From Escherichia coli (GTDB lineage: Bacteria; Pseudomonadota; Gammaproteobacteria; Enterobacterales; Enterobacteriaceae), in assembly GCF_003018115.1 (NCBI RefSeq), contig NZ_CP027457.1: a DNA stretch of 64,000 nucleotides; one strand, given 5' to 3'. The position numbers are program-made. Every line of letters starts with the position of its first letter. Position 1 is the first letter of the stretch. This document shows positions 3,001 to 6,000 of the stretch, in pieces.

Positions 3001-6000
3001 ATGAGGATTACCTGAAATGGCTGGACCAGTGTCTGGCGCAGTTCTGGCGGGTGCTGAAACCTGCCGGAAGTCTTTACCTGTTCTGTGGCCATCGCCTGGC
3101 ATCTGACATTGAAATCATGATGCGTGAACGCTTCAGTGTGCTGAACCATATTATCTGGGCGAAGCCGTCCGGACGCTGGAACGGGTGCAACAAGGAAAGC
3201 CTGAGGGCGTATTTCCCCGCCACAGAGCGCATTCTGTTCGCGGAACATTATCAGGGGCCGTATCGTCCGAAAGATGCCGGGTATGAGGCGAAGGGCAGGG
3301 CACAGAAACAGCATGTGATGGCACCGCTGATTGCTTACTTTCGTGATGCGCGTGCTGCCCTGGGGATAACGGCAAAACAGATTGCTGATGCCACAGGAAA
3401 GAAAAACATGGTGTCGCACTGGTTCAGTGCCAGTCAGTGGCAGCTACCGAACGAAAGCGATTATCTGAAATTACAGGCGCTGTTTGCCCGGGTGGCAGAA
3501 GAGAAGCATCAGCGCGGTGAACTGGAAAAGCCCCACCACCAGCTGCTGGAGACGTATACTTCACTGAACCGGCAGTATGCGGAACTGCAGAGTGAATATA
3601 AGCATCTGCGGCGGTATTTTGGCGTGACGGCGCAGGTGCCGTACACGGATGTGTGGACGCATAAACCGGTGCAGTACTATCCCGGGAAACATCCGTGCGA
3701 AAAACCGGCAGAAATGCTGCAGCAGATAATCAGCGCGAGCAGTCGTCCGGGGGACCTGGTTGCAGATTTTTTCATGGGGTCGGGTTCGACAGTCAAAGCC
3801 GCGATGGCGCTGGGGCGTCGTGCAACTGGCGTTGAGCTGGAGACTGAACGTTTTGAGCAGACGGTCAGGGAAGTTCAGGATTTAGTCAGTCAGAACGGAT
3901 GATATTGCAGGATTAGTTACGTACCGTTATTATCCTGCGCCGGCCCTTTAGCTCAGTGGTGAGAGCGAGCGACTCATAATCGCCAGGTCGCTGGTTCAAA
4001 TCCAGCAAGGGCCACCATATCACATACCGCCATTAGCTCATCGGGATAGAGCGCCAGCCTTCGAAGCTGGCTGCGCGGGGTTCGAGTCCTCGATGGCGGT
4101 CCATTATCTGCATTATGCGTTGTTGGTTCTGATGAGTGAATCATTGTCTTTTGAGCAACAGGCTATCATATAAGATAGCCTCAGACTTCCTTGTTTATTC
4201 TCGCCGGATGCTTCGTAGATATTTGCAGGCATCTGTATGCAGGGGTATTATTGCGGCATATATCATCCGGAAAAATAAAAACCACATGCTGATCCGGAGA
4301 TGATAGTTACAAGTCCTCCCGGATCCCGCATATTTACTATATTTTATAGATAATTGTTCTTGTTAATATGGAGATGGATAAATGTATTGCCGTGCTGTAC
4401 CGGTTCTTGTTTTGATATTAGCTAGTCTGACAACTGGCTGCACAAAAGATGTATCGACAAATAATTATGATGCTTCTCTGTATCACTCAGATAAATTAAT
4501 AAAGTCGCAAAATTTGAGCTCATCGGAACGTACCCCTGATGCCAGTGAAGAAATCCGGCAGTATGCCATTCAGGTCAGGAAAGCCATAGAAGAACAGTTA
4601 AAGGATGCGAGTAAGTATTCAGGAAAAGAGTGTTCACTGAGAATGTATATGGCCCCGAATGGTCTTCTGCTACAGGTTAAAAGAGAAAGCGGTGATCCCG
4701 ATTTATGTCGTGAAGCGATGAATGCAGTAAAGAATGCTGATATACCATCACCACCGTCTTCAGGAGTATATAAAGTATTTAGAAATGGCGTGCTGGATTT
4801 TAAACTCTGACAGGGGGAGAAGATTTTCTCCTGTCCTGATGATTTTGGGGCGCTGGAAAGATATTGTGCTGTGAAGTGTTAAATCCCTCACAATTCAGTA
4901 AGTTGACAGTTGCCTGTCAGACTGAGCATTTGTTAAAAAAATTTCGCATGGTGAATCCCCCTGTGCGGAGGGGCGACTGGTGAACGGTATGATCTCTTTG
5001 ATGATCGTAAGCGAGAATACGCGGGTTTGGTGTCACCGGGCTGAACTCACCGGGAGGCACCCGGCACCATGCTCATGGTGATACAGAAATGCGGCTTCAG
5101 CCCCTCTCCGGAGGGGCTTTCTTATGGACAAAAAAAGCCCGCGCTGGGAGACGCGGGCGGCAAGGAATAAACAATAAAACGTGAAGTAATACTTCAACTG
5201 GCGAATAATACCCGACAGTAATCACTCTGCGCAATAGCGTGGCCTTTTTCGAATTGCGGGCTGTAGTCTCCCTTCTGCCGGGTGTCCTGGTTGCAGATTT
5301 CTTCATGGGGTAGGGTTCGGCAGTTAAAGCAGCGATGGCGCTGGGGCGTCGTGCAACTGGCGTTGAGCTGGATACCGGGCGTTTTGAACAGACTGCGCAG
5401 GAAATCAGGGATGTATTTAGCGGGAGCGGTTTGCAGAAGTAATCTCCCAAAATGCCATTTTTGGAATATACTGGTATTAAGTCTTTTTGCTCAGGTTAAT
5501 TCAAAATGGATGTTGCCTGCTCTGTGGTCCTGATTCGCTATCCGATAGATATTTTTCTTGAAAAAGAAAAAGTTTCACTCGATGCCGGAAGTGTTATGCT
5601 TGTTGCCAGAAATATAAGAGGGCTTTTCTGTGCTTATGCCGACAGAGTGAAAATGGCAGATATAAGTAACAGCGTCGTCAATCAGTATCTGGAAAGGGTG
5701 TGTGAACTGACGGAGTATACACCGACAAAAATGCCTCTTTATTTGATGTCTGATATTTACAATACGGAACTGGCGGAGGCTTTAATAACCCAGCATAGTG
5801 AATCCAGTGATACTTTGAAGGATTTCTCTGTTATAACCGCATTTTCATGTATCTCCTTATTTGCAACAGACAGGCGTCTGCCATTATTTTTGTCCGGTGC
5901 TGTAAATAATATCAGCTGTAAAGTAAGGGCTATAATTCAGACTGACATATCGGCAGGCTGGATGCTAGGTGTGATTGCATTACAATTGCATATGAGCGAA

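Follow-up and report, generated by a model that had tools for sequence, protein, structure and literature searches.

A lambdoid prophage resembling those that carry Shiga toxin (Stx) genes is present in the stretch of Escherichia coli DNA considered here (NCBI RefSeq assembly GCF_003018115.1, contig NZ_CP027457.1), the whole 64,000 nucleotides (nt) of which are called the window below. In its late region this prophage carries a small gene, named the tolA-like gene in this text, and the product of the gene consists of three parts: a lipoprotein signal, a disordered linker of 33 residues and a C-terminal domain III of TolA (TolAIII). The open reading frame (ORF) at 4382–4810, with a product of 142 amino acids (aa), had been pointed out in an earlier note on this DNA; it was recovered by ORF calling and is placed at identical coordinates by the NCBI annotation pipeline (PGAP) in a 100%-identical E. 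coli chromosome (locus L001). The features of the gene are as follows.

4370..4373, plus strand: ribosome-binding site GGAG (Shine-Dalgarno), 8 nt 5' of the ATG, read from the sequence and partly kept in clade B of the family (see below)
4382..4810, plus strand: tolA-like gene for the 142-aa lipoprotein-anchored TolA domain III protein, stop codon counted, from the ORF call and profile matches
4382..4441, plus strand: predicted signal peptide (residues 1–19) and lipid-modified Cys20, with the lipobox L-T-T-G/C found by pattern match
4442..4540, plus strand: flexible linker, residues 21–53, with a predicted local distance difference test score (pLDDT) of 51–58 and no secondary structure
4541..4807, plus strand: TolA domain III module, residues 54–142, holding the pair Cys84–Cys109 (C363/C388 of TolA) and the β3 strand VLDFK (TolA 416–420)
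4809..4835, plus strand: 12-bp hairpin over the stop codon, with a weak U-tract after it, a candidate terminator or RNA-stability element

The hairpin stretch of 71 nt after the gene has a folding energy of −20 kcal/mol with a z-score of −1.8, and the hairpin is not among the calls of the terminator scan.

In every library searched, residues 52–141 of the protein matched TolA's C-terminal domain. The Pfam family PF06519 was matched with an E-value of 1.1e-22 over model positions 7–96 of 96, and seven Protein Data Bank (PDB) entries of E. coli TolAIII, 1s62, 3qdp, 2x9a and 1tol among them, were matched with E-values from 4e-26 to 2e-24, those of the four named lying between 4e-26 and 2e-25. Alignment with residues 333–421 of E. 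coli TolA gave 46 identical residues out of 89 (52%) and reproduced the identity pattern quoted in the earlier note. A position in TolA equals the position in the prophage protein plus 279, and C84 and C109 are aligned with the disulfide cysteines C363 and C388. In the AlphaFold2 (AF2) model, obtained from an alignment of 70 sequences, the pLDDT exceeds 95 over residues 54–141, residues 1–53 being disordered. The comparison of structures with TolA domain III, which the earlier note had called for, was positive: using Foldseek, the model was superimposed on TolAIII from complexes with the filamentous phage protein g3p with a root mean square deviation (rmsd) of 0.6–0.7 Å and a template modelling (TM) score of 0.95 (rmsd 0.6 Å for 2x9a_B). 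No match for the protein was found in the viral structure library BFVD. The protein belongs to the TolA C-terminal domain family (PF06519), and the domain III module claimed in the earlier note is confirmed by the profile, the PDB matches and the alignment.

Close homologues of the protein were found in E. coli and Shigella only and form three clades, namely A, to which the window belongs, B, about 73% identical, and the mEp460-like clade C, 67% identical. The N-terminus of the window protein, MYCRAVPVLVLILASLTTG/C20-TKD, comprises a basic n-region (R), a hydrophobic core of 12 residues and a lipobox ending in Cys20. The segment MYCR-AVPVLVLILASL-TTG/C fits a PROSITE-style lipobox pattern (the regular expression was run on the identical N-terminus of P0040), in agreement with the lipoprotein signal …LTTG/C that had been read here before. 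At the cleavage site, G-C-T is kept in clades A, B and C, and the signal peptides of A and C are 35% identical; this conservation despite the divergence of the signal peptide is the best available evidence, drawn from sequence comparison, that lipidation matters. The commonest allele of clade A (P0001) has L-T-N-G-C, with a less canonical residue at position −2. Position +2 is occupied by Thr in all clades (CTK…, CTD…) and never by Asp. According to the established +2 rule of Lol sorting, Asp at this position is the Lol-avoidance signal, and Thr in its place predicts Lol-dependent sorting to the outer membrane.

The β3 strand of TolA, A415–K420, is the common β-augmentation site for the N-terminus of TolB, the N1 domain of g3p (g3p-N1) and colicin N (PMC4339652, PMC7391070). 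In all three clades TolA 415–420, APLDFK, is represented by GVLDFK, with L417, D418, F419 and K420 unchanged, and the AF2 model has a strand at residues 135–141. The site of colicin A on TolA is composed of the β2 box 375-LLDIKP-380 and cation-π lysines (PMC3365938). In the prophage protein this box reads LLQVKR (D377Q, P380R), K379 and K396 are kept, and K368, the partner of the essential Tyr58 of colicin A (ColA), is replaced by Y in clades A and B and by H in clade C. The sequence predicts that binding in the β3 groove would be retained and that colicin A binding would be weakened or altered; since the colicin A contacts are changed, the protein need not bind every group A colicin. TolA F352 corresponds to L in the clade of the window, clades B and C retaining F, and Y353 corresponds to K, R or G. 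The TolB contacts Y352/V407 of older papers apparently follow a numbering one off the structure-based one and are given little weight here. The affinity of ColA for TolAIII is 1.3 µM (PMC3365938), that of TolA for TolB 40–200 µM (PMC7391070). Among the contacts of TolA domain III named in the earlier note, a direct one between TolA and Pal is disputed (PMC7391070).

The protein is not an orthologue of TolA. The NCBIfam models of TolA are aligned with it only at their ends, at positions 297–386 of 387 and 266–361 of 362. Domain I of TolA, with its transmembrane anchor, SHLS motif and coupling to TolQ–TolR, is absent, and the N-terminus is a cleavable lipoprotein signal instead. The Ala/Lys/Glu-rich helical domain II is absent too, the gap between Cys20 and the domain consisting of 33 residues predicted to be disordered and without a helix. 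The tolQRA-tolB-pal context is likewise lacking, the neighbours of the gene being Q, a methylase, tRNAs, an AraC-type regulator, an esterase and a lysis cassette. With 103.5 bits, the protein is below the PRK09510 cutoff of 213; with 74.9 bits, it is above the TIGR02794 cutoff of 59.45, and the passing of the latter probably explains the PGAP name 'tolA'. This database name is an over-annotation of the prophage gene. Annotation pipelines recognise the domain, yet they give the full name 'cell envelope integrity protein TolA', and PHROGs place the family in PHROG 5772 with 'unknown function'. Through this systematic mis-annotation, hundreds of genomes are credited with an additional 'tolA' whose product is no TolA.

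At the DNA level the family was found in 896 of 5,426 complete E. coli genomes. Clade A accounts for 122 of these, mostly Shiga toxin-producing E. coli (STEC) from cattle and humans, and the other 774 match at about 81%. In the phage collection the gene is present in one record only, mEp460_ev081, where it is annotated as 'TolA protein'. The ratio of nonsynonymous to synonymous substitution rates (dN/dS, Nei-Gojobori) between the clades is 0.22–0.27 in the domain and 0.34–0.57 in the linker, the highest of the mature protein, at dS of 0.45–0.87. These estimates indicate purifying selection, which is strongest on the TolAIII module. Copies of clade B are intact in prophage remnants without lysis and virion genes (L009, L010), and such survival in decayed prophages speaks for an advantage to the lysogen and not for one at lysis. 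Many alleles that are truncated, or frameshifted near the C-terminus (…PAPLRRKYIKYFKMGCWILNPD…), occur among P0020–P0039, including a 91-aa form from Shigella sonnei, and are due either to recurrent decay or to homopolymer errors of assembly. The copy in L003 is a pseudogene according to PGAP. Recent capture of host tolA was considered and rejected, given the identity of only 52%, the absence of host tolA from the blastn results at the DNA level and a dS between clades that has already reached 0.45–0.54.

In mEp460-type phages a second lipoprotein TolAIII paralogue, 27% identical, is located directly downstream (6580–6975 in L002, which is mEp460_ev081, and 7547–7921 in L003); it is absent from the window. 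Its last strand reads …SGFDMRG vs …VLDFKP, and this divergence may mean a diversified ligand specificity. An exhaustive HMMER search of 1.84 billion cluster representatives gave 303 relatives, and a lipobox was found in at least 50 of the 89 short representatives (≤170 aa) with a TolAIII domain. To judge from these matches, the combination of a lipoprotein anchor with TolAIII recurs within Enterobacterales. Wider members are known by name from Serratia proteamaculans, Kosakonia sacchari, Hafnia paralvei and Dryocola and are all automatically annotated as 'TolA' or 'colicin import membrane protein'. The stand-alone lipoprotein TolAIII genes of these genera include L007 6001–6408 and L004 641–1084, with the proteins P0041, P0050, P0061 and P0093. 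Some of the genes are situated in chromosomal neighbourhoods without phage genes, one of them having a CLC channel on one side and an OpuA-type ABC transporter on the other. Over about 90 residues, the distance of the prophage protein is 0.467 to E. coli TolAIII and 0.487 to the Serratia lipoprotein, values too similar to decide whether the lipoproteins group apart from TolA.

The order of genes around the tolA-like gene is RusA, Q, a membrane protein of 237 aa, a DNA methyltransferase, tRNA(CAT), tRNA-Arg, the tolA-like gene and a pseudogene of the methylase 3' end. It continues with an AraC regulator similar to YdeO and GadX, a NanS-p-type esterase, DUF1378, DUF826, holin, lysozyme, Rz and terminase. 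The neighbouring features are listed below.

690..1355, plus strand: antiterminator Q of the late genes ('bacteriophage antitermination protein Q' of PGAP at L001), 5' of the cargo region
1609–2322, plus strand: multi-pass membrane protein of 237 aa directly after Q, with a low guanine-cytosine (GC) content of 0.37–0.42, phrog_1521
2964..3902, plus strand: DNA adenine methyltransferase, a flank common to Stx2 phages
3747..3898, plus strand: first copy of a 152-nt direct repeat, methylase 3' end (repeat family D3, 82% identity)
3942..4017, plus strand: tRNA with CAT anticodon, Met according to ARAGORN and Ile (lysidine-modified Ile2 type) according to PGAP
4027..4103, plus strand: tRNA-Arg (TCG), from ARAGORN and PGAP
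4917–5129, 6889–7084, 7148–7357, 7419–7617 and 7679–7868, plus strand: five copies of the STnc100 small RNA (sRNA) family (Rfam RF02076), 119–172 bits
5278..5429, plus strand: second copy of the 152-nt direct repeat, methylase 3' end (methylase pseudogene of PGAP)
5506..6231, plus strand: AraC-family regulator, GC 0.40, nearest to YdeO and GadX and under their cutoffs
8096..10060, plus strand: esterase of the SASA family (NanS-p type), which bounds the cargo slot downstream; holin, lysozyme and Rz come next, in the same order as in Stx2a phages

In Stx2a phages, the flank made up of the methylase and the tRNAs matches the window at 98.5% identity up to about position 4124; beyond this point these phages have a third tRNA and stx2AB, and then the same esterase and lysis genes. 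With these common flanks, the tolA-like gene occupies the exact stx slot within the Q-dependent late transcription unit. The earlier note had described a prophage gene in the cargo slot after Q and the tRNAs, the position of stxAB, and both the lambdoid late-region neighbours and the Stx2a comparison bear this out. Two tRNAs are present in the window vs three in Stx2a phages.

In its setting and composition the gene resembles a moron, being an accessory gene between conserved modules with near-identical flanks and differing in GC content (0.41) from the phage backbone (0.52–0.58). It is also bracketed by the 152-nt direct repeat, which flanks a cassette of the tRNAs, the tolA-like gene and one copy of the STnc100 sRNA and looks like a recombination scar of cargo exchange. 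The STnc100 copies, four of the five in tandem, are situated between the tolA-like gene and the esterase and belong to a family related to the PasD sRNAs of Stx phages (2026 preprint). The AraC gene found directly 5' of the tolA-like gene in clade B is 58% identical to that of the window, which shows that AraC and tolA-like cargo genes travel together in clades A and B. The regulator of the window presumably resembles the prophage-encoded regulators PsrA, PsrB and PatE of O157. The clade B counterpart of the 237-aa membrane protein carries the Pfam domain PF27470 'TfpB', and this protein is a conserved late-region cargo gene product.

A scan of the DNA 5' of the window gene gave two promoter-like sites vs 3.3 expected by chance, and a site at 4222–4251 that matches at 9 of 12 positions does not exceed chance either. 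In the upstream DNA, conservation extends over clades A and B but leaves out clade C, so that no shared promoter could be defined. In the mEp460-type locus, a promoter-like site (10 of 12) is located 30 nt 5' of the leading gene, and the second paralogue is followed by a terminator-like site; this putative frame is a moron layout.

Another lipoprotein with a domain of an energy transducer, the TonB C-terminal domain (TonB-CTD), is encoded in the same prophage.

13024..13365, plus strand: TonB-CTD lipoprotein of 113 aa with the signal MKMKRNLPLIILLSSLVMG/CT; Pfam TonB_C at 7e-15, residues 39–106

Its lipobox reads …LVMG/CT. The PGAP name is 'TonB family protein'; the label 'Rz-like spanin', under which its family stands in PHROG 1267, is probably an error of annotation. 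Phage 21, ev017 and Stx1a phages have the TonB-CTD lipoprotein as well, and among complete E. coli genomes it occurs in 1,615 of 5,426. Like the tolA-like protein, it is an uncharacterised product of a late-region moron in which a lipobox and a short linker are joined to the tip domain that belongs to an energy transducer of the inner membrane. It differs in the domain, in the slot, which is located after Rz where λ has bor, and in its independent distribution: mEp460 has TolA-type genes and no TonB-type gene in the region examined, and phage 21 has the TonB type only. Two independent morons, each joining a lipoprotein anchor to a transducer tip, suggest a possible common strategy directed against import by the Tol and Ton routes.

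[quoted passage not shown] In our opinion, which is a tentative one, the tolA-like lipoprotein may be a mimic of TolAIII, tethered to the outer membrane and uncoupled from energy, that serves as a dead-end decoy and sequesters Tol-dependent colicins or Ff phage. The protein would be exported, lipid-modified at Cys20 and directed to the outer membrane's inner leaflet, where some 33 flexible residues would tether the TolAIII domain to the inner face of this membrane. As domains I and II are absent, the protein would not be energised by TolQR and would transduce no force. The tethered domain would stand where colicin translocation domains and g3p of Ff phages first enter the periplasm, and could capture the ligands of the β3 groove (TolA boxes of the colicin N type, g3p-N1) ahead of the real TolA. 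The N-terminus of TolB, which is used by E-type colicins, is a possible further ligand of the decoy. A lysogen would thereby become tolerant to Tol-dependent bacteriocins and filamentous phage, and the affinity gap (about 1 µM for parasitic ligands vs 40–200 µM for TolB) might allow a modest amount of decoy to trap the invaders and largely spare Tol-Pal.

A number of observations make the decoy more plausible: the conserved β3 strand and disulfide, the purifying selection, Thr at +2 and the retention of the gene in decayed prophages. This retention and the moron-like frame of mEp460 would favour a benefit to the lysogen. The same logic is known from experiments in which Tol proteins or their ligands were placed in the periplasm. 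Levengood-Freyermuth et al. reportedly observed in 1993 (J Bacteriol) that periplasmic TolAIII confers colicin tolerance, and Henry et al. are said to have found in 2004 that its expression leads to periplasmic leakage and overproduction of vesicles. In the reverse direction, periplasmic g3p-N1 titrates TolA and so causes tolerance to colicin A and phage (PMC10424213).

Several points weigh against the decoy. The gene is placed in the Q-dependent late transcript, and no promoter above chance was detected in the clade of the window, which makes expression in the lysogen questionable. The contact surface for colicin A is altered (K368 to Y/H, D377Q, P380R), and binding of TolB would also harm the Tol-Pal function of the host. 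Truncated or frameshifted alleles are common, and lipo-TolAIII genes in ordinary chromosomal neighbourhoods of other Enterobacterales allow a cell-intrinsic role. Defence models of PADLOC gave no match to the protein at E ≤0.1, and no functional study of it was found in the literature searched.

The late position of the gene, in the exact stx slot between Q and holin/lysozyme/Rz, would also suit a deliberate sabotage of Tol-Pal. In this case a tethered TolAIII expressed late would compete for the N-terminus of TolB and cause a transient 'tol' phenotype with a leaky outer membrane and hypervesiculation. The benefit would consist in the release of progeny, toxins or vesicles loaded with sRNA, or in an outer membrane weakened in advance of lysis. 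We regard this explanation, its supposed benefit included, as rather unlikely. It is in line with the conserved TolB-binding β3 strand, with the lack of a strong promoter of its own in the clade of the window and with the leakage and vesicle overproduction said to follow periplasmic TolAIII expression in the work of Henry et al. 2004. It is at odds with the intact gene in remnants that have no lysis or virion genes (L009, L010) and with the promoter- and terminator-like frame of the mEp460 type, typical of morons expressed in the lysogen. Moreover, the TolA–TolB affinity is so weak (40–200 µM) that strong interference would require very high expression, and the changes of F352 to L in the clade of the window and of Y353 to K, R or G fall at or beside Tyr-352, which has been implicated in TolB binding.

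An accessory role in the cell envelope, with a physiological partner of the protein (for example, as an outer-membrane adaptor for CpoB, TolB or another β-strand ligand) and with acquisition from a chromosomal lipo-TolAIII family, seems unlikely to us. Such a family does exist, as follows from the lipobox in at least 50 of 89 short representatives of the domain and from members in Serratia, Kosakonia, Hafnia and Dryocola, some of them amid housekeeping genes with no phage genes nearby. Nevertheless, every E. coli locus examined is the late region of a prophage, the nearest relative outside the family is, marginally, E. coli TolAIII (0.467 vs 0.487 to the lipoproteins of other genera), and the chromosomal homologues could themselves be decoys against bacteriocins. 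It is very improbable that the gene is a functionless remnant, a captured 3' piece of tolA that is translatable by chance. The many truncated or frameshifted alleles (P0020–P0039) and the pseudogene called by PGAP in L003 would agree with decay, but the ORF is complete and has a Shine-Dalgarno sequence, a lipoprotein signal whose function is conserved over three clades has been acquired, and dN/dS is 0.22–0.27 at dS of 0.45–0.54. The identity of 52% to host TolA means that the capture was not recent, and the AF2 model is confident and native-like.

If the decoy reading is extended to the TonB-CTD lipoprotein, temperate coliphages may generally use 'energy-transducer mimicry', in which uncoupled tips of TolA (the tandem paralogue of mEp460-type phages among them) and of TonB, tethered to the outer membrane, would intercept Tol- and TonB-dependent colicins and phages at its inner face, the chromosomal lipo-TolAIII genes of Serratia, Kosakonia and Hafnia included. 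This generalisation is conceivable and, in our view, doubtful. If true, it would define a class of determinants for tolerance to bacteriocins and phages that is very common and has gone unrecognised, with the TolA type in 16% and the TonB type in 30% of complete E. coli genomes.

The literature search for phage or prophage proteins with a TolA domain returned unrelated papers only, plus a genome note on a Stutzerimonas phage that lists a 'TolA' auxiliary gene. The statement of the earlier note that no prophage TolA-domain lipoprotein has been described is therefore correct for the literature searched, with the reservation that databases already flag the domain as TolA. The TolAIII domain itself is known, and the finding is not categorically new. 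Undescribed in the searched literature are a predicted outer-membrane lipoprotein with TolAIII alone, the stx-slot position of its gene, how widespread it is and the decoy role proposed for it; to our knowledge, the lipoprotein-anchored TolAIII architecture has never been studied.

If the decoy does operate, a natural, horizontally mobile mimic of TolAIII tethered to the outer membrane would constitute a novel type of determinant of tolerance, present in about one sixth of sequenced E. coli. The clade of the window is enriched in STEC negative for the locus of enterocyte effacement (LEE), and the decoy could shift the outcome of colicin-based competition in the gut of cattle and humans and make STEC harder to control by colicins. 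The protein is also a natural reagent for Tol-Pal research, as a variant of TolAIII in which the β3 groove is intact and the face for colicin A is altered.

Among known systems, domain III of E. coli TolA (residues 333–421; PDB 1S62, 3QDP, 1TOL, 2X9A) is the closest to the prophage protein, having in common with it the fold, 52% identity, the disulfide cysteines and LDFK of the β3 strand. Unlike E. coli TolA, the prophage protein is without domains I and II, its lipid anchor is predicted in the opposite, outer membrane, its gene is located in a prophage and not in the tol-pal operon, and the colicin A contacts K368, D377 and P380 differ. The stxAB genes of Stx phages share the slot, with near-identical flanks, whereas the proteins and their activities are unrelated. 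The porin genes lc of phage PA-2 and nmpC of DLP12 are other cargo of the slot between Q and the lysis genes, and the lc porin remodels the envelope of the lysogen; here, too, the slot is common, and the proteins and activities are unrelated to those of the tolA-like protein.

The engineered periplasmic TolAIII and g3p-N1 constructs follow the same logic, since an uncoupled periplasmic domain competes with the native interaction and gives tolerance. They are soluble, overexpressed and made in the laboratory, whereas the tolA-like gene is natural and under selection, and its product is predicted to be tethered to the outer membrane. Llp of phage T5 and Cor of φ80, N15 and HK022 are small phage lipoproteins of the outer membrane that shield the infected or lysogenic cell from further entry by way of an import pathway of the host, and they do so by acting on the receptor FhuA. 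They are the nearest natural functional analogues of the tolA-like protein; no sequence relation to it was found in any search, and neither of them copies a host protein. The target of Llp and Cor is the receptor, whereas the tolA-like protein would act one step later, at the contact with the energy transducer in the periplasm.

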